In this document: positions 5,797 to 30,218 of the stretch, piece after piece
Layout: every line of letters starts with the position of its first letter
Numbering within the stretch: position 1 is the stretch's first letter
Source of the DNA: a virus
Lineage: Duplodnaviria > Heunggongvirae > Uroviricota > Caudoviricetes
Reading direction: 5' to 3' (one strand)
IMG/VR virus record: IMGVR_UViG_2526164631_000025
Span: 1 to 32,915 of that record
DNA: 32,915 nt
Notes under the pieces: model-generated
The model's input: the letters and a program-made list of their open reading frames with translations, nothing else
Database searches by the model: none
Told to the model about the DNA's origin: nothing
Translations under genes and position numbers: made by a program

Positions 5797-7161
5797 TTAT
5801 TTATGATGATCTGGTGTAATAACGTCGCCCAAAACACGGCTAATTCTTTCTCGTAATTGCTGGGTGCCAGCACTCTTGATCGCTGTATCGTGGAGACGGT
5901 TAACCAGTTCGCGATAAACATGCGGCTTAATTCGGATACGTTCACCGGTGACGCCCTTTCCTGGCGCTGGCACCGAACTATCCGGAATATCCGGATAGTT
6001 GCCAGCCAGTCTACGCAAAACGGCCTTAACAGCCTCAATACGGTCATCATCGCAATTTTCCAGCGTATCTATGCGATCGAGCATGATGATGGCGTTATCA
6101 ATATCAGGATTGCCGGTCCACTCATTACCGCGATTGGATTCGGCAGCCTGGTTGCCGCGTACTGGTTGATTATCGGCTTTACCCAGTCTGTCGTTGCTGC
6201 ATGAATGCCCTTCCAGCAAGGCCAATGCTTGTCGCATGAAATACGCAATATGTTTGCCGTGGTAATCGTCTTCATCGATGTGAAAAGCGATACTGCGGAT
6301 GTATTCAATTGCGTTTTCAATGGCCTCCGGCGTTATCGGCGCTGACATATTTTGATTTTGGAGTGCCAAGACGCGGCTGGCATCCTCAACACCTTTAACG
6401 GCATCTGCGCAGTAGTTATAGCGATTGCATTCCACTAACTTCTGCTTGAGATTTTCAATTGCTTGCGCGACATCAGCCTGTATTTCTGGAACTGGCGGAA
6501 CGGCTGTTTGCTCTCGAACGTCATTAGTCGCTATCGGTTCTGCTGCCAACTGACTGGCATATTTGTTAATGGTAACGATAAGCTCTTGCTCAGCCTCATC
6601 CAGACAATCACCGATACCTCGCCTGTCACCGTCAAAATCATCGAAATCGGCACGAATCTTGGCAACCTTCTGGATTGCGGACAACACCTCACTAGGAATT
6701 ACCGGATAGTTGGTTGACGTTTCCGCGATTTCCCGAAAATTATTGGTTGACGAATTCTTGTTTTCCCGAAAGTTTCCGGACTGAAGCATGGCGGCGCGGC
6801 AGGCGTTCCATATTTCGGCAGCAATATCGCGCTCGCTATCGGTTAATTTGTACGTGGAAACATAGCCAGAGAGCATTTCTACGTTTTCCGGAGTTGCTTC
6901 TTCCGGCACTACCGGCGCTGGCGGGGCGATGCGTCCAAGCAACTTATTTACCTCTTTCGCCATCGCGTCATATTTATCTAAATGGCGATTAGCTTCTAAG
7001 CAGACTCGGCGCATCTGATCTGAGTTAACTCGTTTAACTGGATCTGCTTCCAGCGATGCCAGCGCAATCCGTGCCAGTTCCATTTGTTCACCACGGGTAA
7101 GCCCGTTTTCAAGCGGATTTTTAATGAACAATTCAATACGTTCTTTGGTAATAGTGGTCAT
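5797..7161 (-). CDS. hypothetical protein (454 aa)
   Basis: ATG with AAGGA SD; C-terminal 37 aa (KPHVYRELVNRLHDTAIKSAGTQQLRERISRVLGDVI) are homologous to an internal segment of the DUF4406-like protein. Confidence 0.7.
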   Translation of the reverse strand: MTTITKERIELFIKNPLENGLTRGEQMELARIALASLEADPVKRVNSDQMRRVCLEANRHLDKYDAMAKEVNKLLGRIAPPAPVVPEEATPENVEMLSGYVSTYKLTDSERDIAAEIWNACRAAMLQSGNFRENKNSSTNNFREIAETSTNYPVIPSEVLSAIQKVAKIRADFDDFDGDRRGIGDCLDEAEQELIVTINKYASQLAAEPIATNDVREQTAVPPVPEIQADVAQAIENLKQKLVECNRYNYCADAVKGVEDASRVLALQNQNMSAPITPEAIENAIEYIRSIAFHIDEDDYHGKHIAYFMRQALALLEGHSCSNDRLGKADNQPVRGNQAAESNRGNEWTGNPDIDNAIIMLDRIDTLENCDDDRIEAVKAVLRRLAGNYPDIPDSSVPAPGKGVTGERIRIKPHVYRELVNRLHDTAIKSAGTQQLRERISRVLGDVITPDHHK

Positions 7162-7171
7162 TTGTTAGTCC

Positions 7172-7927
7172 TTAAACTGCTAGTTGCAATTGCATTTCAA
7201 AGCGGTCGCGTTGTTCACAATACGCAAGAGAACCAGGGCTATTGTGTGCCTCAATCCGTTCTACCATTAATGCTGCGCGTGTCTCTTTACTTGCAGGTGC
7301 ATAAGCCCCAGACCAGGCTTTATCAATACCGATGTTTCGAGCGACGTTCGTACTATCTGCGCTGGCTAAGGGTAATTTTGTGAATATCAGCGGATTTAAC
7401 ATGCGCAATCCATGTAGTTTCGTAACCGGCTGACCATGCCCATCAACAATGTGACGAATCAGGTCTTTCATTCTGGCTACCGCAAGAGTTGGGCGCTTTA
7501 CGTCATAGTCGCCACAACTACCGATAGCCACTCGCGGAAGCTCATTGCACAAATGAATAAATCGCTCGTCACTTTCATTCATGTGCCACACTGGAACGCC
7601 AGCTAGTTTTCCGTGAGGCCACTCATTCAGAAGCGCATCATTTTCCTCCTCTCCGCCATCAATAACATCCGGGATAATGGCAAAATCGAATCCTGGGTGA
7701 TTCTTCCAGCGAGCAACAAACTCGTAGTAATCGCTCCAGTCGATTTTGTTTTTGCCAGCTGCTTTCCAGGCGGTGAATGCACCGTTGTCCAGCGCGAACG
7801 ACTGACAGTATTCAGCCGCGAGATTGATCTGGCCTGAATGCGCAAAACTGATAAACGCATGTCGCCCTTTCCATGCTCTCATTGCGCACGTATCAGGAGT
7901 AATAGGCCCACCGTGGTAGTGAATCAT
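7172..7927 (-). CDS. hypothetical protein (about 251 aa)
   Basis: ATG at 7927 one nt after the upstream stop, preceded by a perfect AAGGAG; N-terminus MIHYHGGPITPD. Confidence 0.6.
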   Translation of the reverse strand: MIHYHGGPITPDTCAMRAWKGRHAFISFAHSGQINLAAEYCQSFALDNGAFTAWKAAGKNKIDWSDYYEFVARWKNHPGFDFAIIPDVIDGGEEENDALLNEWPHGKLAGVPVWHMNESDERFIHLCNELPRVAIGSCGDYDVKRPTLAVARMKDLIRHIVDGHGQPVTKLHGLRMLNPLIFTKLPLASADSTNVARNIGIDKAWSGAYAPASKETRAALMVERIEAHNSPGSLAYCEQRDRFEMQLQLAV

Positions 7928-9718: not shown

Positions 9719-10004
9719 TAGTTACCTCCGCTTCCCACGTTTTCAGACTTTCACCACAGAACGGGCAAAATGAAACTCGAATAGGCGATTTAGAAAATTC
9801 ACCAGACCGCAGCATGATCAGGTCTTGTGAATGAATTAATTCATGGTTATAGATTTTGTATTTCAGCAGACCTTTTCGCGTCGTGTATTCAGCATCCTGC
9901 TCCAGAGATTGTGCCAGCGCCGCGCACGGTTCTATTTTTCTGTCATTAATCAAACAAGTGGAGATTCTGCACTTTGCAGCTCCGTCACCGTTACCTTGAC
10001 TCAT
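9711..10004 (-). CDS. hypothetical protein (97 aa) with C-terminal CPFCG zinc-ribbon-like motif
   Basis: ORF in operon context; Cys pairs. Confidence 0.45.
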   Translation of the reverse strand: MSQGNGDGAAKCRISTCLINDRKIEPCAALAQSLEQDAEYTTRKGLLKYKIYNHELIHSQDLIMLRSGEFSKSPIRVSFCPFCGESLKTWEAEVTSE

Positions 10005-10017
10005 TGTGTTGTTCCCA

Positions 10018-11013
10018 TCAGTTATTGAACGTGATCACTCCGCGCTCGATGGCGAAGTCGAAAAGCTGGTTAGCGGCTACGTAAAGGCGTATGCCATGTG
10101 CTTTTTCCCATGCCCGGACATCGTTTTCTGCGCTTCTGGCGCAGTCATCGCAAAGAGGAACAGCCCAGCGGTCGTGTTCGTTTAACGAGCGGGCGCGGTA
10201 CATGAATGGGTGATTAACCTTGCCGCCGCAGCCTACACACGGGCGAGACACCACAAACCGGAGATAAGCCGGGCTTTTTCCGAGTAAGGTTTTTGGACGG
10301 CGCATATATAGGAGGCCAGAATCTTCATCGACGGACAGATTGACGATCTGCTCTGCGGAAATATCCACCAGCTCGCGGGTACTATGCTCCCAGGTAATAT
10401 CCGACTCTTTCAGAGTGCCGGTAGGGATTTCAGTTTTTGGCTGACAAAATGCAATGCGACCAGCTTCATCAGGCAGTTCGTCTTTAAGATTCCGGCGAAT
10501 GGCCCAAAAGGTGAGTTCAACCATGCTCAGATCGCGATCTGGCGGAAGTTTTAACTCGCTGGCAGCCCAGTTCATAATCCAGTTGGCGCGATTCAGTGAC
10601 AGTTGGTCTTCCAGCTTGCCGTATCCCTTCATCATGTATTCCGCATCATGCTTCCAGCACAGGCGAACGGCAGAACCGTTATAGAAATGGGTGGTTAGCT
10701 GGTGGCTGCAATCGCGCTTATCATGCGCCTGGCAATCGTGAATGTTGGTGCTAACCCAGTGAACGAGAGAATCCTCACCACCTAACGCGTTAAATACACG
10801 CTCACTTTGAAAAAAGGGTGCCAGTGACTGGTTGGCAACCAGTGAATAATTCAGGTCAACGACACCATCAGGGGTGTTTTCAGCCTGTTCACGCGGCAAT
10901 GGGGATATAAGAAAACGGCGTCCTGCGCCGATGTAATTGCTGGTGGGCTTATCTACAGGAAAGACAGCCACACCAGTTTCATTTACGACATATGGGGTGA
11001 TTATTGCACTCAT
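10018..11013 (-). CDS. hypothetical protein (331 aa) with C-terminal Cys cluster
   Basis: CVGCGG...H...PLCDDCAR motif near the C-terminus; preceded by an intergenic region carrying the GTTAGAAAACTAAAATCAATG motif. Confidence 0.55.
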   Translation of the reverse strand: MSAIITPYVVNETGVAVFPVDKPTSNYIGAGRRFLISPLPREQAENTPDGVVDLNYSLVANQSLAPFFQSERVFNALGGEDSLVHWVSTNIHDCQAHDKRDCSHQLTTHFYNGSAVRLCWKHDAEYMMKGYGKLEDQLSLNRANWIMNWAASELKLPPDRDLSMVELTFWAIRRNLKDELPDEAGRIAFCQPKTEIPTGTLKESDITWEHSTRELVDISAEQIVNLSVDEDSGLLYMRRPKTLLGKSPAYLRFVVSRPCVGCGGKVNHPFMYRARSLNEHDRWAVPLCDDCARSAENDVRAWEKAHGIRLYVAANQLFDFAIERGVITFNN

Positions 11014-11111
11014 AATGCATACCGACTCTGTTTTGTTCCGAGCGGTAAAATAATATGTTAGAAAACTAAAATCAATGTTCTAACGCAATTTTGAGTGCGT
11101 AAATGATTTGA

Positions 11112-11804
11112 TCAGACTTTAAGCTGCCCTCCCTTCACCTGCATTAGCGTCAGATTTCCGCAAAAAACCGCGCCCGTGTCTATGTAGTGCTGATTCCAGT
11201 ATGCTTTTGGTCTTCGTACCGATGTGTGCCCAAAGATAAAGCGATCTGCGCCTGTGATTTCTCCACCAATGCCATCTATCGAATCACCGACGCGACTGCG
11301 CGACCAGACAACATCAAAAAGCGACACATCCTTACCGAACTGGTACTCTCCACCTGGATAGTCGGCATGGGCTATAACGATAGTTTCATGCCCGGTGTTC
11401 AACTCAATGATATATGGCAGACGCTTTACCAGCTCCACCAGCGCCTTGGCTAATATTTCCTGATCAGTGTCCAGCATGAAGAACCATTGTCCGCCATTCA
11501 TTAGCCAGTTATTCACGTTGCCATCAGGACTTAACGCATCAAGCATCAACCGCTCATGGTTCCCCATTACTGCCCTGAACCAGGGCATCTGCAATAGTTC
11601 CAGACATTCGACATTTTCAGTACCGCGATCGATAAGGTCGCCAACCGATATCAGTAAATCCTGCGCCGGGTCAAAATCCACACGATGGAGTTCGGACATC
11701 AGTCTGGTGTAGCAACCATGCAGATCACCAACAACCCATATGTTTCTATAGCCAGAACCATCAATACGGCTATATAAATTCACTTCATGCAGAGCCTGGG
11801 TCAT
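11112..11804 (-). CDS. Ser/Thr protein phosphatase (lambda PPase / PrpA-like metallophosphoesterase)
   Basis: GDLHGC, GDLIDRG and GNHE metallophosphatase motifs. Confidence 0.85.
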
Positions 11805-12112
11805 GCAGCAACCTTCTCACGCAGCCAGATACAAACCGGACCATCTTCAGTGTCATGAATAGAGCCAACAAACCAGCCTTCACCCTCTGGTCGCTCCGGT
11901 TCCCAGGCGGCAATATCGGGACCAGCTGCGTCCAGATCAAAATCATCTTCATCCATACTGCGAATAGTCCACTGAAGATTATTTTCCTTCATCCAGGCGT
12001 CAAATTCCTCAGTAGAAATATATTCACGACCTGCGCAAAACTTCTCATACTCCGGATGTGTCCAGCAGCCATATTCATCACGTTCTACCGGCATTTCTTT
12101 AATGATGCTCAC
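11801..12112 (-). CDS. hypothetical acidic protein (103 aa)
   Basis: Overlapping stop/start coupling in the operon. Confidence 0.45.
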
Positions 12113-12333
12113 TCTTCATCCTCCAAGTCGGCAACGGCCTCCATCACATCAGAACCGCGAATAACCTCAAAAGCACGGCAGGCCATTTCAAACACCTGTT
12201 GTTCTTGCGGATGCGGTGACTCCCAATACTTAAAACCAGGTCGATGCTCGTAACCCATCATGGAATAAAAATCGCCAGCAAGTTCAATCGCGGCATCAAC
12301 AAGTTCGCGATTTGTCATCGTCTGTTCTGTCAT
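12109..12333 (-). CDS. hypothetical protein (74 aa)
   Basis: Coupled ORF. Confidence 0.4.
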   Translation of the reverse strand: MTEQTMTNRELVDAAIELAGDFYSMMGYEHRPGFKYWESPHPQEQQVFEMACRAFEVIRGSDVMEAVADLEDEE

Positions 12334-12605
12334 TTGGTTTTCTCCTGTCTGAACATCACTATCATCAGGTCGCCTTTTGTCGCTATTCTGGCTGTTGTGC
12401 CTGGTTCAATGCGGCTAAGCTCAAATGCGTCATAGAACGCTTCTAATGCCTTCTGGCGTAGTTCCTGTTTGCGCCGTTTTTTCCACTCTTTTAGGAAAAT
12501 GGAACCCAGCCATCCCCATGTACGGGACATGATGTAAAGCCAACCGAGAAGTGCCAGACCGGTATTTAGGGCCGTATCGATCGTTATCGTGGTGTCGATA
12601 TTCAC
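12330..12605 (-). CDS. hypothetical protein (91 aa) with a hydrophobic segment
   Basis: Coupled ORF; LALLGWLYIMSRTWGWLGSIF. Confidence 0.4.
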   Translation of the reverse strand: MNIDTTITIDTALNTGLALLGWLYIMSRTWGWLGSIFLKEWKKRRKQELRQKALEAFYDAFELSRIEPGTTARIATKGDLMIVMFRQEKTK

Positions 12606-12850
12606 TGTGGTGGCTCCTGCTTTTCTGCCTTTAATACCATGCGAGAACCATCATCCAGCTCCCAATTAATTTCACCGCCTTCAGCCATGACTAGATGCCA
12701 AACGAGTTGTGCGGCCTCGTTGGTTACATCACGACCGCGATCATTGCCGACACGACGTTTTGTTCCATCCCCTAAGTCACGCATTTTTGCCAACACGATG
12801 GTTTTTGATAGCGGTGAAAAACCAAGCTGTAGTCGTGCGGTATTACTCAC
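12602..12850 (-). CDS. hypothetical protein (82 aa)
   Basis: Coupled ORF. Confidence 0.4.
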   Translation of the reverse strand: MSNTARLQLGFSPLSKTIVLAKMRDLGDGTKRRVGNDRGRDVTNEAAQLVWHLVMAEGGEINWELDDGSRMVLKAEKQEPPQ

Positions 12851-13488
12851 TGTTTGCCTCCTTTTCGAAGCTGGGCAGCGAACCTATCAGCTGCATCCGC
12901 GCAAGCAGAAGCAACGGAATCAAAAAATGGATCATCTCCGGTATCGCGCATCGTCAAAGCGAATGCCTCCACCCCTTGTGCCTGTATTTCTACAAGGTAT
13001 GCCTTAGATGTAGTGCTTTTCGCCTCGCCTAATTCGTTATGAGCGATGTTCGCTATACATGCGATGTCTATATCTGGATGATTAATTGGGCAATGGCTAA
13101 GAATTGCCTCAAGTGCTGCTTTTTTGCTTTGGCATTCCGCCACCATCGCCCCGCAATTGCTTTCATATTCGGCAATACGCTGTTTAGCAGCCTCCAGCTC
13201 AACACGCAGCTTCTCAAGCGTTAGAGCCATCTCCATGTTCTCGTCCAGCAGTTCAATCACATCAGGATCGCTATCATCAACTACTGTTATGCGCGATTTT
13301 TTGTAATGCTCGTCAGCATAAGTTCGTCCAGTTTTGAAGCATCCGTCGTCCTCCATGCCGGAACAGGCATAAACAACATGTGATCCAGATATGCGCTGCA
13401 TTGACATTTCCTCGCCACAAACAGAGCATTTAGGCGCTGGTTTCGGTGAAAAACGTTCACGTAACGTATGATAGTAAAGCTCGCTCAC
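12847..13488 (-). CDS. Ea22-like coiled-coil paralog with N-terminal Cys-rich region
   Basis: LEKLRVELEAAKQRIAEYE module and C-terminal ...AAQLRKGGKQ shared with neighbours. Confidence 0.5.
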   Translation of the reverse strand: MSELYYHTLRERFSPKPAPKCSVCGEEMSMQRISGSHVVYACSGMEDDGCFKTGRTYADEHYKKSRITVVDDSDPDVIELLDENMEMALTLEKLRVELEAAKQRIAEYESNCGAMVAECQSKKAALEAILSHCPINHPDIDIACIANIAHNELGEAKSTTSKAYLVEIQAQGVEAFALTMRDTGDDPFFDSVASACADAADRFAAQLRKGGKQ

Positions 13489-14282
13489 TGGCTGCCTCCT
13501 TTGCGAAGCTGTTCAGCGATATCTTCGAGAACGCCATCAGAGAATGAGCGGTCAAAATCGCCTTCCCGCGCATTAGCCATAAACTCAGTAGAGGTAAGAA
13601 TCATCCGGGCAATATCCGCGGCGTTCTTCGCAGTATCATCAATAAAACCAGCTTCCCAAGCAGCCAGCATTCTGTTCGCCACAAAGTAAGCGCCCTCCTT
13701 GCGTGCTTCAGTCTTCACTTCATCCAGGAAAGTGTCGGTCGCAGGAGTGGTTTTTTGTGGTGATAGGGCGATACGAATTGTTTCAAGAGCTGGATCTATT
13801 TCCACTGTTGGCACTTTGATAAAACCAAGCTGCACGCCATTCATAATGAACGTGCGGCGATCCTCACATATCGCCTTCAGTCTCGCATTCTCCGCAGCCA
13901 GCGCCGCGCGATTACCCTCCAGCTCTGCAATGCGCTGTTTTGCGGTATCAAGTTCAATCGATAATTTTTCCAACTGCTCTTTATGCTTCTTATATTCCTG
14001 ATATGCGTGCCAGGACTGACCTTTGCGCACACTATCAGTAATATCAGTAATCTGTTCTGGTGTTAGCGTGGTCAGTGGCTGTGCTGGGAAAATCAGCACT
14101 TTCCCGGAATCCCAATCAAAACCAGCGTGAATTGACTGAACCTCAACTGAGGGTGTTGAACCAATGCTGCCAGGCGAATGAATAACGATTGTTACATCCA
14201 TATCGCGACGATGGCTGTGGTTGTTGGACAAAATACGATTCACCAACTCAGAAAATTTGGAGAATTTCATGCGGAGCCTCAA
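13485..14282 (-). CDS. Ea22-like coiled-coil paralog (265 aa)
   Basis: IELDTAKQRIAELEGNRAALAAENARLK and C-terminal ...EQLRKGGSQ modules. Confidence 0.5.
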   Translation of the reverse strand: MRLRMKFSKFSELVNRILSNNHSHRRDMDVTIVIHSPGSIGSTPSVEVQSIHAGFDWDSGKVLIFPAQPLTTLTPEQITDITDSVRKGQSWHAYQEYKKHKEQLEKLSIELDTAKQRIAELEGNRAALAAENARLKAICEDRRTFIMNGVQLGFIKVPTVEIDPALETIRIALSPQKTTPATDTFLDEVKTEARKEGAYFVANRMLAAWEAGFIDDTAKNAADIARMILTSTEFMANAREGDFDRSFSDGVLEDIAEQLRKGGSQ

Positions 14283-14689
14283 TATGCAAAATAGACCGTT
14301 GCCACGCCGTTATAGTGATCAAACGATACGGCGTTTACTTCATAACTGGCCGGGAGCTTCGAGCCAAGAACGTATCCGGGCCACGTTTTCCATGGAATTT
14401 CTCTATTCTCACTACCCCCATATACCGTACATCCAAGTGAACCTACAGCTTCATTAGAACGCGTGCCGCACGTTATGAATCCCAGATTTTGCTTACTGCT
14501 CTTAATGGTGATTGAGTGAACGCTGGCTGATGCATTAGCAGCACGCTGTGCCTGTTGGTTTGCGATATTCGCAGAGTTCGCAGCAGCTACAGCAGCCGTA
14601 GTCGCGGCGGTAGAGGCTACAATAGCTGCTGAAGCATGCACTTGTTGGATATTCACCAACAATGCCGCGACAAAAATCATCTTCTTCAC
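14279..14689 (-). CDS. small secreted protein (136 aa) with signal peptide
   Basis: MKKMIFVAALLVNIQQVHA signal-like N-terminus followed by an Ala/Ser/Thr-rich region. Confidence 0.5.
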   Translation of the reverse strand: MKKMIFVAALLVNIQQVHASAAIVASTAATTAAVAAANSANIANQQAQRAANASASVHSITIKSSKQNLGFITCGTRSNEAVGSLGCTVYGGSENREIPWKTWPGYVLGSKLPASYEVNAVSFDHYNGVATVYFAY

Positions 14690-15174
14690 TTGTCAGCTCC
14701 TTTGCGAATCTGTTCCGCCCATTCTTCAAGGGATTTCTCCGCATATTCACCGGACAGGCCATCAATCGGGTGCGGTTCATTAGCCAACTCTTCTTTCGCT
14801 GACAGAATCATGCGTGTAACGTCGAAAACTTCACGTAAAGACTTATTGATAAATCCGTGGTTGAAAGCAGCAGCAAGACGGCTTGCGGTATAGTTAATCC
14901 CCTCGTTGCGAGCCTCCGCACGAATTTCAGCCAGAAAAGCATCGGTGGCTGGAGTTTCGCTGTGGTGCAGGGCATCGTTGATAATCATTGCAGCAACTCC
15001 GGCCTGCCCTGCATCCGTGACCGACACATGCTCAAGAGTTACAGCCATTGCATGTTTCAGCCCAGCATTCTCCGCCGCCAGCGCCGAGCGTTCTTTCTCA
15101 AGTCGGGAAATTTCCGTTACATACTCAGCGTTACGCTCTGCCAGTTGTGCTGGCGTTAAACCTTCAGACTTCAT
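14686..15174 (-). CDS. Ea22-like coiled-coil paralog (162 aa)
   Basis: ISRLEKERSALAAENAGLK module and C-terminal ...EQIRKGADK. Confidence 0.5.
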   Translation of the reverse strand: MKSEGLTPAQLAERNAEYVTEISRLEKERSALAAENAGLKHAMAVTLEHVSVTDAGQAGVAAMIINDALHHSETPATDAFLAEIRAEARNEGINYTASRLAAAFNHGFINKSLREVFDVTRMILSAKEELANEPHPIDGLSGEYAEKSLEEWAEQIRKGADK

Positions 15175-15481
15175 GTACTCTCCTTTCGAAATAAACGTAC
15201 TGATTAATCATGCTCAAGGGCATTTCGAGTTTTTCTGCGATCTCACGGCGGGGAACACCACACCGATGAAGCTGCCGTGCCAGTTCTATATCGCCCTGCC
15301 GGTATTTGGCTGACGGGTGAAAGTCTCCTTTCAGAATCATGCAGATCCGCAGTTGCCGCGCTTTGGTTCTGACAGCACTACCGGTACGCCCGATCAGCCT
15401 CCCAATACTCACGACTGTCATAGTCCCGGCGCACTGGCGGAGTATCATGATTTCCGCCCTTCCCCATCCCCGCCAGCTCAC
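15164..15481 (-). CDS. hypothetical protein (105 aa or shorter), possible HTH
   Basis: Start overlaps the upstream stop; REIAEKLEMPLSMINQYV HTH-like segment; true start uncertain. Confidence 0.4.
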   Translation of the reverse strand: MSWRGWGRAEIMILRQCAGTMTVVSIGRLIGRTGSAVRTKARQLRICMILKGDFHPSAKYRQGDIELARQLHRCGVPRREIAEKLEMPLSMINQYVYFERRVHEV

Positions 15482-16101
15482 GCTGACATCCTCTGAGACA
15501 TAAACTCCACAAAACGAACTGCATCTTCAGAAACAACGCCGCATGACTTCAGATAATTCATTGCGTCATTAGGTAGCGGATTAGTTGGTTCGGCATTTGC
15601 CAGGGATTGAGATAAACGCGTGATTAATTTGACCATTCTCCGCTGCCGGAGGTTGTATCCTTCAGCCAAAGACAGGTAACTGGAAAGGGTTTTGCTTAAG
15701 CGGGCGCGAAGCTGATCCGTGCCGTGACATTCAATAGCAACATCACGTAACGCATTTACCAGTTCACGGTAAATATGCGGAGCAACCTGGCATTCAATGT
15801 TGGTTTGTGACTCATAAATTACAGTCAGCCCCAGCTTTTCAGCCAGCGCGTGCTCTGCGCGAGCACCAACCGATTCTTCCCATTGATTGAGCAGATAGAT
15901 CGCATCAGCAGAACGCACCATTGCCAGGCAAATATCCATGTATTCACTCTGGCAAAGGCCACCAGGTAACACAGCTGGATTCAGAACGATATGCCCTTCA
16001 GACATCAGCTCGCTCGCTTTCGCATTAAACGCAGCACGGTTGTAATCTGGATAACCAGTCATCGGCCCCGCGATGTAAATTTTCAAAACACGTTTCACCA
16101 T
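15478..16101 (-). CDS. DUF4406-like (nucleoside 2-deoxyribosyltransferase-like fold) protein with C-terminal shared module
   Basis: N-terminus MVKRVLKIYIAGPMTGYPDYNRAAF...LNPA typical of DUF4406; residues about 105-141 match the C-terminus of the 454-aa protein. Confidence 0.55.
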   Translation of the reverse strand: MVKRVLKIYIAGPMTGYPDYNRAAFNAKASELMSEGHIVLNPAVLPGGLCQSEYMDICLAMVRSADAIYLLNQWEESVGARAEHALAEKLGLTVIYESQTNIECQVAPHIYRELVNALRDVAIECHGTDQLRARLSKTLSSYLSLAEGYNLRQRRMVKLITRLSQSLANAEPTNPLPNDAMNYLKSCGVVSEDAVRFVEFMSQRMSA

Positions 16102-16256
16102 CAAAATTTCCCCAAAATCGTGACGCAAAACATAAGCACTGCGAAAAGCTCAATACCAAGCTCAAGTAGCGCCAACGCCCCGAAAAACAACACATAGAAC
16201 AGGCCAATCTCATTCACAGATGGCTGGTGGATCGCACTTAAAGCTATAAGCATCAT
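16101..16256 (-). CDS. small hydrophobic membrane peptide (51 aa), first gene of the leftward operon
   Basis: Not in the ORF track (below 60 aa); ATGATG start preceded by GGAGGA; stop TGA overlaps the DUF4406 ATG (ATGA); sequence MMLIALSAIHQPSVNEIGLFYVLFFGALALLELGIELFAVLMFCVTILGKF. Confidence 0.45.
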   Translation of the reverse strand: MMLIALSAIHQPSVNEIGLFYVLFFGALALLELGIELFAVLMFCVTILGKF

Positions 16257-16373
16257 GTCCTCCAAACAGTTATCAGGAATGATATTAATGTTTTGTGTTA
16301 GAAAATCAATTTTGAATATCTAATCATTTTGATCAATCATAGAAAAATCGCTGAAAAGTAAGAGGCAGCCATC

Positions 16374-16951
16374 ATGCAGAAACAGAGCTATTGGGAGAAA
16401 CAGAGACAAAAAGCCATGCAAAAATTGGCTGACCCAGCCTGGCGAGAGGAACAAAGGGCAAAGCGCCTTCAACAAGCTCAACGCCAGCAGCAGCGAGCGA
16501 GAGAAAAAGCCGCATCGCCTGAATATCGGCAAAAGAAAATTGAAAAAGCAAAGCAATATGAACAGCGGAGAAAAGATAAAGCTGTATCCGCTCCGTCCAA
16601 AAAACACGCACGTCACGCGGCCTGAAAGGCAGATCACTCACAGCCGATGAACGCCGGATACAGACCGCTATCGGTGCTCTCCCCTGCATTGCCTGCCATA
16701 TTCACGGGCAACATAGCCCAGTGGTATCCCTGCACCATATCTTCGGGAGAACGGCAGAGAACGCACATAGATATGTCCTCCCTTTGTGTAAATGGCACCA
16801 CCAGTACGCAGCGCCAGCCGAGGTCCGAGAACAATATCCCTGGCTGGTCCCTGTTCATGCTGACGGAAAAATAGGCGGAAAAGCAGATTTCATGCGGCAC
16901 AATGCCGATGAAATGACGTTGTATCAGATGGCGATTGAATTGATAAATTAG
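16374..16951 (+). pseudogene. HNH endonuclease, apparently split by a 1-nt frameshift in an A6 run (16599-16604)
   Basis: Frame 1 (16374-16625) encodes a basic K/R/Q-rich 83-aa peptide; the next frame is open from 16580 with no canonical start and encodes CIAC...HHIFGRTAENAHRYVLPLCKWHH (complete HNH signature); one extra A would fuse them. Confidence 0.5.
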
Positions 16952-17196
16952 TTTTCTAACATTTTAAGTTGAATTGTAAATTTCTCCGATGTACATTCAC
17001 TACCGATTGGCACACCGGTCAACTTTTTGAGACAAACTGTTTAGTTTTTCGTATTATTGCCGCCGCTATACCTATGGCGGTGCAATATAGGTGGCTGAAA
17101 AGCCCCCGTTGACTCACGGTGTTCCAGCCTTTATTGCGCCGCCACCAGACCGTGGAACAGTCGATGGCGGCTCCGAAAGCAAGGAGTCACCACACT

Positions 17197-17286
17197 ATGA
17201 ACAGCTACTGTCTTTTCCCATCACTCGTTGTCCGCCACTCACGCGATAATCTGCATTCTTTACTCGCGCTGGGGGTGTCAAAATGA
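17197..17286 (+). CDS. mini-ORF (29 aa) with strong SD, coupled to the downstream ORF
   Basis: AAGGAG 9 nt upstream of ATG; stop overlaps the next ATG (ATGA); below the ORF track cutoff. Confidence 0.3.
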   Translation: MNSYCLFPSLVVRHSRDNLHSLLALGVSK

Positions 17287-17450
17287 CCGTTCGCTACCTC
17301 AACTTTCAAATCCAGAACATCACTGGCGGTTGCTATGACTGGTTTGTCACTCTCGGAAAAGAAGTGATCACCGGGAAGCTGGATGAAGTGAAAGCTAAAG
17401 CAATGGCCTACGCCTGCAAGCAAGCCCGGAAGAAATCCGCCAAAGCATAA
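17283..17450 (+). CDS. small basic protein (55 aa)
   Basis: MTVRYLNFQIQNITGGCYDWFVTLGKEVITGKLDEVKAKAMAYACKQARKKSAKA; GGGGG SD-like element upstream; below the ORF track cutoff. Confidence 0.4.
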   Translation: MTVRYLNFQIQNITGGCYDWFVTLGKEVITGKLDEVKAKAMAYACKQARKKSAKA

Positions 17451-17499
17451 AATACTGACTGTTGCGCCCTGGCATTATCGTGGGGTATATTTCTACGGC

Positions 17500-17740
17500 A
17501 CCTTAGAAAAACGGGTGCCGGGATTGGAACCCCGGATAATGCAAAAGGCGACACAGACGCCGAAAGCGTCTTTTTTTGTGTCATGCCATCGCACAGCCAT
17601 ACGTAGCGTTTAGCTCAGAGATCAATGGTAGTGCTGGCTGGGCTGCCGAAAGGCAGGCCGGTTCCCTTTTGCGCCGGTAGTTCCAACCCAGTCAGTGCTA
17701 CCGCCATTGAGATTGGAACCTCACGCGGTAGCTCCTTAAA
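17500..17740 (+). ncRNA. putative c4-type antisense RNA / structured leader upstream of icd-like gene
   Basis: ORF-free stretch with hairpins, an internal terminator, GATTGGAACC repeats at 17521-17530 and 17711-17720 and complementary GGTTCC/GTTCCAA between them; sits directly upstream of icd-like and antirepressor-like genes as in P1 immI. Confidence 0.3.
17556..17577 (+). terminator. rho-independent terminator
   Basis: GACGC-CGAAA-GCGTC hairpin followed by T7. Confidence 0.55.
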
Positions 17741-17762
17741 TTAGCAAAAGGAGGCTGCCAAT

Positions 17763-17978
17763 ATGGCTACTATCCCTACCCCAACTCATTCTGAATTTAT
17801 CTGGCGTTTCTATTCCTGCCAAAAACACCTGTATATCTGCGTCATGGCTGCTACCGAAGCAGAAGCTCGTTCATACCTTCCTGAAGAACCCTGCATTTTT
17901 GCCGCACGCTTCACTCTTGATGCGATGGAGATCCTAAATTACTGGAATCTGCCAATGAACTGCGTGGAGGTGCACTGA
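17763..17978 (+). CDS. Icd-like small protein (host cell division inhibitor Icd-like family)
   Basis: 71 aa with FIWRF...ATEAEAR...FAAR pattern recalled from Icd-like proteins; AAAGGAGG SD; stop overlaps the next start. Confidence 0.5.
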   Translation: MATIPTPTHSEFIWRFYSCQKHLYICVMAATEAEARSYLPEEPCIFAARFTLDAMEILNYWNLPMNCVEVH

Positions 17979-18919
17979 TGAATCTGTCCATCTCTCAAAA
18001 AGCGACAATGACCAGTATTGAGATCGCGGAACTGGTAGGTAAGCGTCATGATAATGTGAAGCGTACCATTGAAGTATTAACTAAAGGTGGTGTCATTCAA
18101 TTTCCTCAAATTGAGGAAATTGAAAATAAACAATCAGTTGGCCCTCGTCGATTTTCCAAGGCTTACATATTTGAAGGCGAACAAGGAAAACGAGACAGCA
18201 TCATTGTCGTCGCGCAGCTCTCTCCGGAATTCACCGCCCGGCTGGTGGACCGCTGGCGCGAACTGGAGAATGCCCGGGTACAGTTAAAATCAAAAGCCGA
18301 AATTCTGGCTGAAATGGCGCAAATGCATCTTGAGCATGAACGCCGGATCAACGCCGTAAATGCCCAGGTAGCCGAGGTATCAGCACAAGTATCGATGGTC
18401 GCTGAAACACTCGAGCAAATCAAGAAAGGCAATATTCCGGAAGGCTACATTGGCTACCGCCAGCTGGCGGCGAAATGTGGCCTGACTGAAGCCAAATGTC
18501 GCAACCTGGTTAACGCTTTCCGGATTCCCACCGATACACATGAGTTTTTAACTCCAGATGGTTTGCTTGCGCGACGCTCCATTGTGGCCCTGGTCCCCTT
18601 CCGGAAAGCCTTTAAGCAGGTGATGTCGGAGGCAGAACCACGCAATAAACGCTGGTATCATCCAAAGATGGGGATGTTTCAGGCAATCCACCATCCTGTG
18701 CCTGAAAGCCCAAAGGATAATCTGTCACTACATACCGTCAGAGAGAAGATCAGGACTGGATACGCAACAGTGTGTCGTCGTTCTTCCTGGCCTGAAGGTA
18801 TATGGGTGTGGCCCGAAGGTGGATCACGAAAGCACTGGCGCACCATCCGTGACGGGAAAATCCATGCTATTGATTTAGCTCCAGAGGATGTTATTGCTAT
18901 GGACTGGATTGTTAGTTAA
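17978..18919 (+). CDS. Rha-family phage regulatory / antirepressor-like protein
   Basis: N-terminal TSIEIAELVGKRHDNVKRTIEVL matches the Rha N-terminal signature; 313 aa. Confidence 0.6.
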   Translation: MNLSISQKATMTSIEIAELVGKRHDNVKRTIEVLTKGGVIQFPQIEEIENKQSVGPRRFSKAYIFEGEQGKRDSIIVVAQLSPEFTARLVDRWRELENARVQLKSKAEILAEMAQMHLEHERRINAVNAQVAEVSAQVSMVAETLEQIKKGNIPEGYIGYRQLAAKCGLTEAKCRNLVNAFRIPTDTHEFLTPDGLLARRSIVALVPFRKAFKQVMSEAEPRNKRWYHPKMGMFQAIHHPVPESPKDNLSLHTVREKIRTGYATVCRRSSWPEGIWVWPEGGSRKHWRTIRDGKIHAIDLAPEDVIAMDWIVS

Positions 18920-20323: not shown

Positions 20324-20540
20324 GTAAACAAAATGAAGTTTTATGTTACAAAAACAATCAACTACATCAACATGATTTAGGCCAAATTTCGGTCAAAAAA
20401 TAAAATCCACAAAAAGTGGTTGACACTATTTTGGAAATCACAAACTGCACATAATCCATCGCGCTAACGGCTCCCGTTGAAGGTTCTTTTGACGATTAAC
20501 TTTCAGCCGAAGCGCGGTAGGGAGTCATAACGCCAAAGCA

Positions 20541-20591: not shown

Positions 20592-21245
20592 ATGGAAAAG
20601 ATCGCAATATTCAGCCTGACCACCAGCAAGCCTCAAATGCTCACTGCAATACTGAAAGACGGTGCTCTCATTATTAACGAAGTAAAACCCCTTCCCGCGT
20701 CAGCATTGGAGCAAAAGCAAAAAATTCCTCCAGCCATAGCAGCCCTGCGGAAAAGCAAATTTAAGGTACTGGTAGACGAAATTACGCCAACGATCTCCGC
20801 TGGCACCGGAGCAAGCCAGGTGACTCTCAAGACCCGTCATGCCGATGGCAGAGCAGCAATCATCGTCGGGATGGAAAGATACAGAGAGTTAAAACTCCAG
20901 AAGCTATTATCCCTGCCGCAAAATAACAAAGGTGCTTTCGAAATCCCCGACTCTATCGTTGATACCGAATACAACGGTAACGGAGAAGAAGTCTACAGGG
21001 TGAACTGGCAGGATATCAGGCCGGAGCATATTCTGATGATCCTGTGTTGCTACGCGACCGTATACCACAACGTTGCCAGTGCGGATTACGTAGAGCAGAT
21101 GACCGGTACAGTCGAGAAAGAGCAAAAAACAGGCATACTCGCTTCGTTCCTTTCCATTATTGGGCATGAAAAAGTTAAAGCAGGCACCTCCCAGCCAAAG
21201 TCACTGGCTGGGAAAGAAGTTGATGAAGATACCGTGATACTTTGA
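20592..21245 (+). CDS. hypothetical protein (217 aa)
   Basis: GGAGGAAGG SD 5 nt before ATG; the ORF track start at 20550 lies inside the terminator. Confidence 0.6.
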   Translation: MEKIAIFSLTTSKPQMLTAILKDGALIINEVKPLPASALEQKQKIPPAIAALRKSKFKVLVDEITPTISAGTGASQVTLKTRHADGRAAIIVGMERYRELKLQKLLSLPQNNKGAFEIPDSIVDTEYNGNGEEVYRVNWQDIRPEHILMILCCYATVYHNVASADYVEQMTGTVEKEQKTGILASFLSIIGHEKVKAGTSQPKSLAGKEVDEDTVIL

Positions 21246-21374
21246 TCACATTAGTAGCTTTGTTAACTCCCTCAACACCAGGTAGAAGAGTAACAAAAAT
21301 ATTGATGCCAGTATTTGAGTGGTCAATGAGGCGTTCATAAACAGATCAATAAGCTTTAACAATTCTAGAATAAC

Positions 21375-21379: not shown

Positions 21380-21470
21380 TAGACTGGCCCCCTGAATCTC
21401 CAGACAACCAGTATCACTTAAATAAGTGATAGTCTTAATACTAGTTTTTAGACTAGTCATTGGAGAACAG

Positions 21471-21836
21471 ATGATTGATGTCTTAGGGCCGGAGAAACGC
21501 AGACGGCGTACCACACAGGAAAAGATCGCAATTGTTCAGCAGAGCTTTGAACCGGGGATGACGGTCTCTCTCGTTGCCCGGCAACATGGTGTAGCAGCCA
21601 GCCAGTTATTTCTCTGGCGTAAGCAATACCAGGAAGGAAGTCTTACCGCTGTCGCCGCCGGAGAACAGGTTGTTCCTGCCTCTGAACTTGTTGCCGCCAT
21701 GAAGCAGATTAAAGAACTCCAGCGCCTGCTCGGCAAGAAAACGATGGAAAATGAACTCCTCAAAGAAGCCGTTGAATATGGACGGGCAAAAAAGTGGATA
21801 GCGCACGCGCCCTTATTGCCCGGGGATGGGGAGTAA
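21471..21836 (+). CDS. insC: IS2 transposase OrfA (InsC)
   Basis: 121 aa [41 protein letters not shown]... Confidence 0.95.
21788..21794 (+). promoter_or_regulatory. IS2 programmed -1 ribosomal frameshift heptamer A_AAA_AAG
   Basis: Heptamer in the insC frame at the insC/insD overlap. Confidence 0.8.
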
Positions 21837-22699
21837 GCTTAGTCAGCCGTTGTCTCCGGGTGTCGCGTGCGCAGTTGCACGTCATTCTCAGACGAACCGA
21901 TGACTGGATGGATAGCCGCCGCAGTCGTCACACTGATGATACGGATGTGCTTCTCCGTATACACCATGTTATCGGAGAGCTGCCCACGTATGGTTATCGT
22001 CGGGTATGGGCGCTGCTTCGCAGACAGGCAGAACTTGATGGTATGCCTGCGATCAATGCCAAACGTGTTTACCGGATCATGCGCCAGAATGCGCTGTTGC
22101 TTGAGCGAAAACCTGCTGTACCGCCATCGAAACGGGCACATACAGGCAGAGTGGCCGTGAAAGAAAGCAATCAGCGATGGTGCTCTGACGGGTTCGAGTT
22201 CTGCTGTGATAACGGAGAGAGACTGCGTGTCACGTTCGCGCTGGACTGCTGTGATCGTGAGGCACTGCACTGGGCGGTGACTACCGGCGGCTTCAACAGT
22301 GAAACAGTACAGGACGTCATGCTGGGAGCGGTGGAACGCCGCTTCGGCAACGATCTTCCGTCGTCTCCAGTGGAGTGGCTGACGGATAATGGTTCATGCT
22401 ACCGGGCTAATGAAACACGCCAGTTCGCCCGGATGTTGGGACTTGAACCGAAGAACACGGCGGTGCGGAGTCCGGAGAGTAACGGAATAGCAGAGAGCTT
22501 CGTGAAAACGATAAAGCGTGACTACATCAGTATCATGCCCAAACCAGACGGGTTAACGGCAGCAAAGAACCTTGCAGAGGCGTTCGAGCATTATAACGAA
22601 TGGCATCCGCATAGTGCGCTGGGTTATCGCTCGCCACGGGAATATCTGCGGCAGCGGGCTTGTAATGGGTTAAGTGATAACAGATGTCTGGAAATATAG
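21794..22699 (+). CDS. insD: IS2 transposase OrfB (InsD, DDE integrase core; expressed as an InsCD fusion)
   Basis: 301-aa frame matching IS2 InsD as recalled. Confidence 0.9.
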
Positions 22700-22909
22700 G
22701 GGCAAATCCAATCCATGTCATTCACTCCGTTTAATTTTTAATCTAATTCCAGCAAATGAAGCTGGCCCTCGCATAAAGATTAATGAAAGTCACTTGTCAC
22801 CAGTGAGGGGATTTATGAACCACATCCCCCTGAACTGGTGGCCTGTCTGTTTCTCGCATTTCACACCCTGCATACAGTTTCCCCCAGGTTATGACTGAGG
22901 GGCTTTGTT

Positions 22910-25192: not shown

Positions 25193-25224
25193 ATAATTAC
25201 CAAATATTTAAACATTGATTTTAT

Positions 25225-25252: not shown

Positions 25253-25612
25253 TTAAACACCAACCAGACTTTCCAGTGGAATACCAAACTGGGCATGTAA
25301 ACGACGAATCATAGGTAACGTCAAATTTCGTGTCCCATTAAGCACTTCGTAAACACGGTTTGACTTACCAATTGCCGGTTCCAGATCCTTCACGGTCAGC
25401 CCTTGCTGTTCCATGCGGAATTTAATGGCTTCAATAGGTGATGGTGGCTCAATTGGGTAATGTTTTTTCTCGTACTCCTCAATGAGAAGACACATGACCT
25501 CAAAGAAATCACCTTCCGGGGTGTTCATTTCCGGTTCGTTATCGAACATCGGTTCGACCGCACGCAGTGCGGCCTCATAATCTTGTTCTGTACGGATAGG
25601 TTTAATGTTCAT
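25253..25612 (-). CDS. higA: HigA-family antitoxin (HTH)
   Basis: 119 aa with C-terminal HTH; 3 nt downstream of the higB-like toxin gene (toxin-first order typical of higBA). Confidence 0.7.
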   Translation of the reverse strand: MNIKPIRTEQDYEAALRAVEPMFDNEPEMNTPEGDFFEVMCLLIEEYEKKHYPIEPPSPIEAIKFRMEQQGLTVKDLEPAIGKSNRVYEVLNGTRNLTLPMIRRLHAQFGIPLESLVGV

Positions 25613-25615
25613 GAT

Positions 25616-28603: not shown

Positions 28604-29253
28604 AGCGTAGAGCGCAAATTGTTGGAACTGTGCACCCGGCAGGGCTTATGCGTGCTCAAGTCCGTGTTTTACCTGACTGGAATGGCGTTCCTGATGACGA
28701 TCTACCCTGGGCGGAATACCTGTTACCCATCGGAAACGCTTTTGTACCCACAGTCAAAGGTGACCTGGTCTGGGTAGAGTTTCCTTATTTAGATGTTAAC
28801 GGTCGAATAGACACCAGACGCCCAATGATAGTTGGTGCCGCTCAGGATGCACCGGGAGGAATTCCAAACGTTGCACCAGAAGCATCTGGCAAAGGCAACG
28901 GCTGGACGCCGCCGGAAGTAGATGGAGCACCTCCCCGCCCCCAAATCTCAGCAACGAAAGACTTCGTTATTCACCGCAACAATATTCTTGAAGTACGAAC
29001 TGCTGGTGGCGGCTATGAAATTGCCAATACGGCAGCAGGCTCAAGGATTGGCATGAATGAGTCCGGGCAGATATATATCATTGGTCCGGCTGATGTAATC
29101 GTGAATGCAGGAGGGAGTGTTAACGTCAAATCAGCCAACAACATCAATGTTAATGGGGAAAATATTGCTGTCACCGCTAACGGGGACATAGCTTTCAAGG
29201 CAGGGGGAACCTTTCAGGCCACTGCTGGCAACTTCGATTTCAAGAAAGGATAG
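28600..29253 (+). CDS. gpV/gp5-type OB-fold baseplate spike-like protein (217 aa)
   Basis: N-terminal pattern G.V...G...V.V...DWNG...LPWAEYLLP.G...VP.VGDLVWVEF resembles the P2 gpV OB domain; C-terminal Gly/Asn/Val-rich repeats suggest a beta-helix. Confidence 0.5.
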   Translation: MKRRAQIVGTVHPAGLMRAQVRVLPDWNGVPDDDLPWAEYLLPIGNAFVPTVKGDLVWVEFPYLDVNGRIDTRRPMIVGAAQDAPGGIPNVAPEASGKGNGWTPPEVDGAPPRPQISATKDFVIHRNNILEVRTAGGGYEIANTAAGSRIGMNESGQIYIIGPADVIVNAGGSVNVKSANNINVNGENIAVTANGDIAFKAGGTFQATAGNFDFKKG

Positions 29254-29262
29254 AAAATGCAC

Positions 29263-29306
29263 CCATTTGTGTTAGATAATTAACGCGTATTTTCTAACAC
29301 AAATGG
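29263..29306. promoter_or_regulatory. perfect 14-bp inverted repeat overlapping the rdgC-like RBS
   Basis: CCATTTGTGTTAGA (29263-29276) and TCTAACACAAATGG (29293-29306) separated by a 16-bp AT-rich spacer; the right arm abuts the SD/ATG of the 29313 gene. Confidence 0.6.
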
Positions 29307-29312
29307 TGAGAA

Positions 29313-30218
29313 ATGAGATCAGTCGCTTTCAAAAATATCTTCATCTATCGTCTTTCACGCGAAGTTAGCTGGGATACTGCAGAAGTAAATGCAGCCCTTA
29401 GCAAGTTTGTGTTTACCCCATGCGGTTCTCAGGATATGGCTAAAGCTGGTTGGACCTCCGTTCTTGGTGACAACCTCACACATGAATACCAGGGTTTTCT
29501 GCTAATACAGCATAAGCGAGAAGAAAAAATTCTCCCCTCGCAGGTGCTCAAGGAAGAGTTGCAGAAAAAAGTCCTGAAACTCGAAGAAGAGCAAGCCCGC
29601 AAGCTGAAGAAAACGGAAAGAGACAGTCTTAAAGATGAAGTCCTGCATTCACTTTTGCCTCGCGCGTTCACGAGAAAATCACTTGCCAAAATCCTGATCG
29701 ACCGCAGCAACCATCTGGTATTCGTTGAGGCAAGCAGCGCCAAAAAGGCAGGGGACCAGCTGGCTTTATTGCGAAAATCGCTCGGCAGCCTGCCTGTCAT
29801 TCCATTCACACCACGCGAACCGCTGGAAATTACAATGACCGAGTGGTTTAAAAGCGGCTTCCCTGCCGGATTTACAGCAGGTGAAGACGCCACATTAAAG
29901 GGTCTGCTCGATAATGGTGGTGCCGTTCGCTGCAACAAAGTTGATCTACAGTCCGACGAGATTATGTCTCACATTGAGGCGGGGAAAGTAGCTACGACCG
30001 TTGCAATTAACTGGATGGAACGCGCGTCGTTCAGAGTCAACGATGATATGAGTATCAAAGCCCTGACATTCTGTGATGATCTCTATGACCAGAATGACGA
30101 TATCGACCGGGAGGATGTAGCACAACGATTTGATGCTGATTTCGTGCTCTTTACGGGCGAATTATCTGCACTGTTTAACGCGCTGGTGGAGGCCATTGGC
30201 GGTGAAGCAGAACGTTAA
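29313..30218 (+). CDS. rdgC: RdgC-like recombination-associated protein
   Basis: 301 aa with [42 protein letters not shown] and [15 protein letters not shown] blocks matching E. coli RdgC as recalled. Confidence 0.85.

Follow-up and report, generated by a model that had tools for sequence, protein, structure and literature searches.

Dispersed 16-bp sites in a D6-like plasmid prophage as probable operators of a C1-type immunity repressor

The stretch of viral DNA analysed here (IMG/VR record IMGVR_UViG_2526164631_000025, positions 1 to 32,915; below called the window, meaning all 32,915 nucleotides) carries seven copies of an asymmetric 16-bp element with the consensus TRTGTTAGAAAAYTAA. The replicon from which the window comes carries further copies, all of them between genes. 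By analogy with phage P1, this motif family very probably represents the operators of the C1-type master immunity repressor of a D6-like plasmid prophage. The evidence for this includes the following: the element is far too frequent and too strictly intergenic for chance, its type changes together with the type of C1 between P1 and phage D6, and its copies precede genes that are orthologous to those controlled by C1 in P1.

The 16-bp element and its replicon

Based on the alignment of all copies, the information content of TRTGTTAGAAAAYTAA exceeds 0.8 bit at 15 of the 16 positions and is 0.5 bit at the Y position, with little information outside the element. When the window is scored with the resulting 16-mer matrix, seven sites at five loci reach 16 to 27 bits and all else stays at or below 8.5 bits. 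These seven sites are the following.

Site a, 11054-11069, plus strand: TATGTTAGAAAACTAA, 27.0 bits; left half of a 34-bp inverted pair
Site b, 11072-11087, minus strand: TGCGTTAGAACATTGA, 16.3 bits; right half of the pair of site a
Site c, 16294-16309, plus strand: TGTGTTAGAAAATCAA, 25.3 bits; monovalent
Site f, 16948-16963, minus strand: AATGTTAGAAAACTAA, 24.2 bits; overlaps the ref stop codon (TAG, 16949-16951)
Site g, 20342-20357, plus strand: TATGTTACAAAAACAA, 19.6 bits; weaker copy in which the core G is replaced by C
Site d, 29268-29283, plus strand: TGTGTTAGATAATTAA, 23.6 bits; left half of the rdgC inverted pair, identical in D6
Site e, 29286-29301, minus strand: TGTGTTAGAAAATACG, 17.6 bits; right half of the rdgC bivalent operator (putative)

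The element thus occurs both in a monovalent form (sites c, f and g) and in a bivalent (inverted-pair) form, and the two inverted pairs, at 11054-11087 and 29268-29301, have an identical geometry of 16 + 2 + 16 = 34 bp.

Judging from its sequence, the window comes from a D6-like plasmid prophage, D6 being a distant relative of P1, and is not part of a chromosomal Escherichia coli island or an integrated prophage, the setting first assumed for it. Positions 10000-18000 match the E. coli O111:H2 plasmid pDEC12A-1 (NZ_CP077480.1, 97,453 bp, circular) at 100% in a megablast search, and the whole window is 99.985% identical to this plasmid, with two mismatches and three single-base gaps. The annotation of pDEC12A-1 is P1/D6-like and includes a Cre-like recombinase, a DarB-like SNF2 protein, a tRNA cluster, the Cin invertase with invertible tail-fibre genes, portal, sheath and baseplate genes, RepL, Phd/Doc, Ref, RdgC, a large Dam-type methyltransferase and two Icd/anti-repressor modules. 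The plasmid is assigned to the D6 type because the open reading frame (ORF) beside the recombinase (plasmid positions 1881-2918) is 99.4% identical to D6 C1. Phage D6 (MF356679 / AY753669) and the plasmid pYU39_89 belong to the same type; pDEC12A-1 differs from D6 by additional insertions of IS100 and IS2 and by the exchange of several accessory modules. As in pDEC12A-1, two immI-like c4/icd/ant regions have been reported for pYU39_89 (PMC6799933). Parts of window 10000-18000 match 1,696 of 5,426 complete E. coli genomes, of which only 38 carry at least 80% of this 8-kb query.

Several of the copies had been noticed in an initial annotation as exactly repeated 13-mers. Of these, GTTAGAAAACTAA is found precisely where it was reported, at 11057-11069 (plus strand) and 16948-16960 (minus strand), as are the GTTAGAA...TTCTAAC inverted repeat at 11057-11084 and a looser copy at 20342. 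For TGTGTTAGAAAAT, the copy at 16294-16306 (plus strand) stands, and the second lies at 29289-29301 (minus strand), one base off the position 29288-29300 given for it; a further copy with one mismatch is present at 29268-29280 (plus strand). For TAAAATCAATGTT, which is partly flank of sites a and b, the copy at 25211-25223 (minus strand) is indeed present, and the first copy has to be moved from 11065-11077 to 11067-11079. The inclusion of 25211-25223 in the family does not hold. This copy has TTTAA in place of an intact TTAGA core, and its 13-mer is not preserved by D6 within a region of 78% identity; it is therefore treated as a coincidence and is probably a chance match.

Exact 13-mer repeats are weak evidence alone, since shuffles of the window yield about 20 repeated 13-mers. 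A matrix made from six window sites only was run out of sample over the whole plasmid, at a threshold of at least 14 bits. It found 17 sites, ten of them outside the window, where 1.08 are expected from shuffles. All 17 are intergenic, on a plasmid with an intergenic share of 11.6% (binomial P ~1e-16). Shuffled intergenic DNA of the plasmid, a control for composition only, gave 0.29 sites against 16 observed, which answers, so far as composition is concerned, the question raised in the initial annotation of how often the motif turns up in AT-rich intergenic DNA. The motif family as a whole is far beyond chance. If AT-rich intergenic DNA had produced the recurrences by chance, this would agree with the expected number of repeated 13-mers and with the pair involving 25211-25223, which behaves in this way. 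For the core family, a chance origin is refuted by the whole-plasmid scan, and the sites are also conserved in D6 and in two more distant relatives, so that the probability left to this explanation is negligible. An exact-pattern scan of IMG/VR with TRTGTTAGAAAAYTAA gave mostly single, scattered occurrences among the matches listed.

The candidate repressor and its co-variation with the sites

The best candidate for the regulator, by analogy with P1, is a C1-family repressor encoded outside the window, approximately 3.3 kb past its left end (the plasmid ORF at 1881-2918 mentioned above). It seems better suited than the protein encoded at 15164-15481 or the small protein after doc, both of which had been put forward earlier. 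GenBank annotates the D6-type C1 (WP_000039383.1) as similar to P1 C1, and both proteins fall in phrog_1678 (E = 2e-169 and 3e-140). They are of different length (345 amino acids for the D6-type protein and 283 for that of P1), and BLASTP aligns them with 21% identity over 240 amino acids (E = 2e-8). Homologues of the D6-type C1 carry a precomputed assignment to Pfam PF27008 (Phage_P7_repressor_C1). The gene order pacA-pacB-c1-rox/dre moreover parallels pacB-c1-lox/cre in P1.

The type of site follows the type of repressor. At a threshold of at least 16 bits, pDEC12A-1 has 18 D6-type and no P1-type sites, D6 has 19 D6-type and no P1-type sites, and P1 has no D6-type and 20 P1-type sites. Each matrix was trained on its own genome; since the self-counts arise by construction, the zeros are the informative part of this comparison. 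The proposal in the initial annotation that one DNA-binding regulator acts on several transcription units is well supported, because a change of C1 type between P1 and D6 goes along with a change of motif type; it also agrees with what the element looks like, a dispersed, intergenic and orientation-independent 16-bp site heading orthologues of the P1 C1 regulon.

Two metagenome-derived relatives, L010 and L011, encode C1 proteins that are 51% and 44% identical, respectively. Both keep sites with a GTTAGAAAA core upstream of c1, lpa, pmgS, pdcB and the gene after the recombinase, and GTTAGAAAA is among the most frequent 9-mers in them. These sites form conserved islands in otherwise diverged intergenic alignments. 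Site a, for instance, is kept in L011 amid otherwise unalignable DNA, and L011 shows the same 34-bp bivalent arrangement upstream of lpa. The pmgS site is flipped in L010 when compared to pDEC12A-1. In addition to these sites, the rox recombination site (TAACTTTAAATAAT..ATTATTTAAAGTTA; L002 1640-1670, alignment A1 columns 180-225) is almost perfectly conserved between pDEC12A-1 and the relatives with 44-51% identical C1, while the DNA around it has diverged.

A protein other than C1 might bind the motif, such as a host nucleoid or global factor or a small protein of the window (15164-15448, or the HigA-like helix-turn-helix protein at 25255-25614). Other DNA-binding proteins are encoded in the window, and the link between C1 and the sites is an indirect one. 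We nevertheless find such a binder unlikely. The c1 promoter region is flanked by two sites, P1 has P1-type operators wholesale instead, in the same host but with a different C1, and the motif is kept in L010 and L011, which share the c1-pacAB-lpa-recombinase core (about 10 kb on either side of c1 was compared). Among host factors, LexA recognizes CTGT-N8-ACAG and IHF recognizes WATCAANNNNTTR; by eye, neither consensus fits the motif.

Probable target genes and predicted overlapping promoters

Every window site recurs at the orthologous position in the D6 genome (MF356679), from whose annotation the P1 homologues of the neighbouring genes were named. In the GenBank records of D6, annotations are given for c1, rox/dre and gene homologies and for no operators. 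D6-type sites are located between rox and c1 (two sites), just downstream of dre, upstream of lpa, pmgS, repL, orf52 and each of two c4/icd/ant modules, and downstream of pmgS, facing the tRNA/tciAB cluster. Bivalent sites lie upstream of hrdC(rdgC)-dmt and of pdcB, and the remaining ones upstream of ref, over the ref stop codon and in the simB/mat divergent region. The C1 operators listed in the P1 record include Oc1a-e, Olpa, OpmgRa/b, OrepL, Oc4, Odmt, Oref, Omat and Obanab, and the immC system of P1/P7 also comprises OpmgT, Ossb, Orlf, O26 and Oppp; Obanab heads the tRNA-tci-ban operon and Odmt heads uhr-hrdC-dmt. Going by the D6 and P1 annotations, most D6-type loci correspond to orthologous units of the P1 C1 regulon.

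At the first locus, the pair formed by sites a and b is situated upstream of a pdcB-like DUF968 gene (10018-11013, minus strand); site a is identical in D6, and site b is present there with one change. A weak leftward promoter is predicted here (TTGATT-17-TATTTT), of which site a fills the spacer and site b overlaps the candidate -35. Between ref (rightward) and an operon running leftward from an orf88-like/DUF4406 gene to ppp there is a divergent region of 108 bp, which contains site c. This site is identical in D6 upstream of ref, its place is equivalent to that of Oref in P1, and it overlaps weak candidate hexamers both ways, toward ref and toward the orf88-to-ppp operon. In the window, ref (16374-16951) has one A fewer in an A-run at 16599 than in pDEC12A-1, resulting in a frameshift after residue 77, and the pDEC12A-1 copy reads through to a 192-amino-acid Ref. 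This may be a sequencing error or a real pseudogene; single-base indels between the window and pDEC12A-1 are also present at 969 and 24762.

The end of ref is overlapped by a site in both phages, namely by Omat in P1 and by site f here. Site f, identical in D6, stands upstream of a module consisting of a small ORF, an isrK-like RNA, a C4 RNA, icd and ant, and overlaps a candidate rightward promoter (TTGAAT-16-TAACAT) with the -10 inside the site. The C4 antisense RNA of this immI-type module is found at 17621-17708 on the plus strand (Rfam RF01695, 76.7 bits, E = 1.6e-13), followed by Icd-like and then Rha/anti-repressor genes, and this module is presumably the operon that site f targets. The C4 RNA is immediately preceded by an isrK-like Hfq-binding small RNA at 17498-17576 (RF01394, 62.5 bits). 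The Rha-family anti-repressor gene of the window is flagged as truncated by PGAP, and the second icd/anti-repressor module of the plasmid adjoins repL.

Site g is found in the divergent region between a simB-like gene (leftward) and a mat-like gene (rightward, 20593-21246), where D6 has TATGTTATAAAAATAA; P1 controls mat via Omat. Finally, the pair formed by sites d and e ends 12 bp before the start codon of rdgC(hrdC) at 29313 and heads the rdgC-dmt operon. The only strict-consensus promoter detected, at 29251-29280, is located here. Its -10 (GATAAT) is overlapped by site d, and the pair as a whole covers this -10 and the predicted start. According to strict and relaxed scans, each window locus has a weak sigma70-like promoter, predicted to be overlapped by its site or sites.

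Next to regulation by a single protein, the initial annotation had considered that the motifs are conserved sequences at module boundaries, i.e. linkers marking the recombination joints of mosaic modules. Some sites are indeed kept while their flanks are unalignable between distant relatives, and homology with D6 breaks off 76 bp from the site at 20342. However, six of the seven window sites are 900-1400 bp away from the boundaries of blocks that are collinear with D6 and 93-98% identical to it by blastn, and the sites track orthologous P1 C1-regulon promoters, which a purely recombinational role does not predict. We regard such a role as very improbable.

The position of the sites over candidate promoter hexamers raises the question of whether the motif is itself a promoter element. 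It could be a -10/-35 module that early promoters have in common, or else be recognized by an activator which the phage encodes. The candidate promoters do use TAACAT, GAAAAT or GATAAT hexamers: sites of the ATG variant carry the -10-like TAACAT in reverse complement (sites f and g each supply one), and GAAAAT or GATAAT is read on the forward strand. A promoter element should, however, keep its direction. Because the sites occur in both orientations relative to the downstream genes, an operator is preferred over a directional promoter element, and the flipped pmgS site of L010 as well as the inverted pairs of fixed 34-bp geometry, typical of operators, argue in the same sense. Moreover, lpa itself is headed by a site, as it is by Olpa in P1, and the P1-type late box AAGTGACT is a different sequence that sits elsewhere (22777). 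We give the promoter-element explanation little credence; a promoter-element role and a binder other than C1 both fit the co-variation and orientation data poorly.

P1-type late promoters were also considered and rejected, as the motif lacks the AAGTGACT box found at -22 in the extracted P1 late promoters (-10 TAnnnT). The only good match to such a promoter in the window is ACAAGTGACTTTCATTAATCT, with a -22 box and a -10, at 22777 on the minus strand; it adjoins the IS2 insertion and points into IS2.

The window has some further features of its own. IS100 (IS21 family) at about 70-1880 splits a DUF2829/Tad2-like gene, and IS2 at about 21470-22700 separates the mat-like gene from baseplate gene 26; D6 has neither insertion. 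Accessory cargo unrelated to the motif includes a full-length glutaminyl-tRNA synthetase gene (glnS) at 61972-63633 of pDEC12A-1 (window 32407 onward, partial) and Thoeris anti-defence Tad2-family genes (pDEC12A-1 6708-7283 / window about 1955-2164). Chi sites (GCTGGTGG) are massively over-represented in the window, with 21 copies against 0.88 expected (e.g. at 2215, 10698, 16223, 23110 and 29002), and Chi is among the most frequent 9-mer cores in L010 and L011 too. P1 is also Chi-rich.

Comparison with P1 and significance

According to published work on P1, its C1 binds 22 dispersed asymmetric 17-bp operators with the consensus ATTGCTCTAATAAATTT and represses RepL, Lpa and other functions (PMC8546580). 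The immC systems of P1/P7 and of the D6 type are alike in many respects: about 20 asymmetric, AT-rich sites of 16-17 bp are dispersed over a plasmid prophage of approximately 90-97 kb, the sites are intergenic, lie in both orientations and are monovalent or bivalent, and the cognate repressor is of the same family. In both, sites precede the orthologous c1, lpa, repL, c4/icd/ant, ref, mat, hrdC-dmt, pmgR/S and tRNA/tci. The CI/Cro operators (OL/OR) of lambdoid phages are comparable to the network proposed here in that repressor sites overlap promoters and maintain lysogeny and that the repressor gene is autoregulated. In lambdoid phages, however, the operators are symmetric sites for dimers and are grouped at two divergent promoters next to the gene for the repressor, whereas the D6-type sites are asymmetric and scattered genome-wide over a dozen or more transcription units.

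If the analogy with P1 holds, C1 would occupy the sites in the lysogen and block the overlapping weak sigma70 promoters by occluding RNA polymerase. It would in this way keep the late-gene activator Lpa, lytic replication (RepL), the anti-repressor and the accessory recombination and methylation genes silent, and it would autoregulate c1. Loss or inactivation of C1 would then derepress all these units at once.

Several observations weigh against this interpretation. C1 has been assigned as the binding protein by analogy and co-occurrence. The promoters are weakly predicted, in most cases with 8/12 hexamer matches, and one passes the strict threshold. Several sites are followed very closely by a start codon, at a distance of 12 bp for rdgC and of about 15 bp for c1, and the distance from site f to the isrK-like and C4 RNAs downstream of it is about 540-660 bp, compared to about 200 bp between Oc4 and c4 in P1. 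The D6-type and P1 operator matrices are not significantly similar (P = 0.35, column-permuted controls), and no operator homology is claimed for this reason. Their best register by eye, which is also the best computed one, shares only A-T--TCTAA-A-A. Lastly, the circuit does not appear to be a copy of that of P1. A tblastn search with P1 Coi, a protein of only 69 amino acids, produced no match with E below 2, and no homologue of Coi is seen in the interval from the recombination site to c1; for the D6-like plasmid pYU39_89, Lxc is reported as not detected (PMC6799933).

On the sequence comparison, the element would work like the P1 system but appears to belong to a different specificity class. 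The operator sequences differ (TRTGTTAGAAAAYTAA versus ATTGCTCTAATAAATTT) and have only a TCTAA/TTAGA core in common. Bivalent D6-type operators consist of two 16-mers 2 bp apart (34 bp), whereas in those of P1 two 17-mers share 6 bp (28 bp). Provided that the alignment to P1 made by eye is correct, the D6-type half-sites face outward, opposite to those of P1. We tentatively raise the possibility that TRTGTTAGAAAAYTAA defines a second, undescribed specificity class of the C1 family, one that is unchanged across C1 proteins diverged to 44%, has another bivalent architecture and appears to work without Coi or Lxc. If this is true, cross-immunity would unite the D6-like plasmids of different hosts in one large group, and the C1 of D6 with its operator would be a ready-made repressor/operator pair orthogonal to that of P1.

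The kind of system described here is textbook, extending the P1 immC network to a heteroimmune relative with no new mechanism. No relevant match for the core sequence or for D6 repressor/operator phrases was found in searchable full text, a coverage outside which the D6 genome and immC/Dre papers fall, and the D6 operator sequence may already be described. Phage-plasmids of the D6-like and P1-like kinds occur commonly in E. coli and Salmonella, and resistance genes can be among their cargo. With the operator sequence, the immunity (superinfection-exclusion) group of such plasmids would be readable from sequence alone. It would also delimit the C1 regulon, including the accessory ref, rdgC-dmt and anti-repressor modules, and provide targets for induction or curing experiments.

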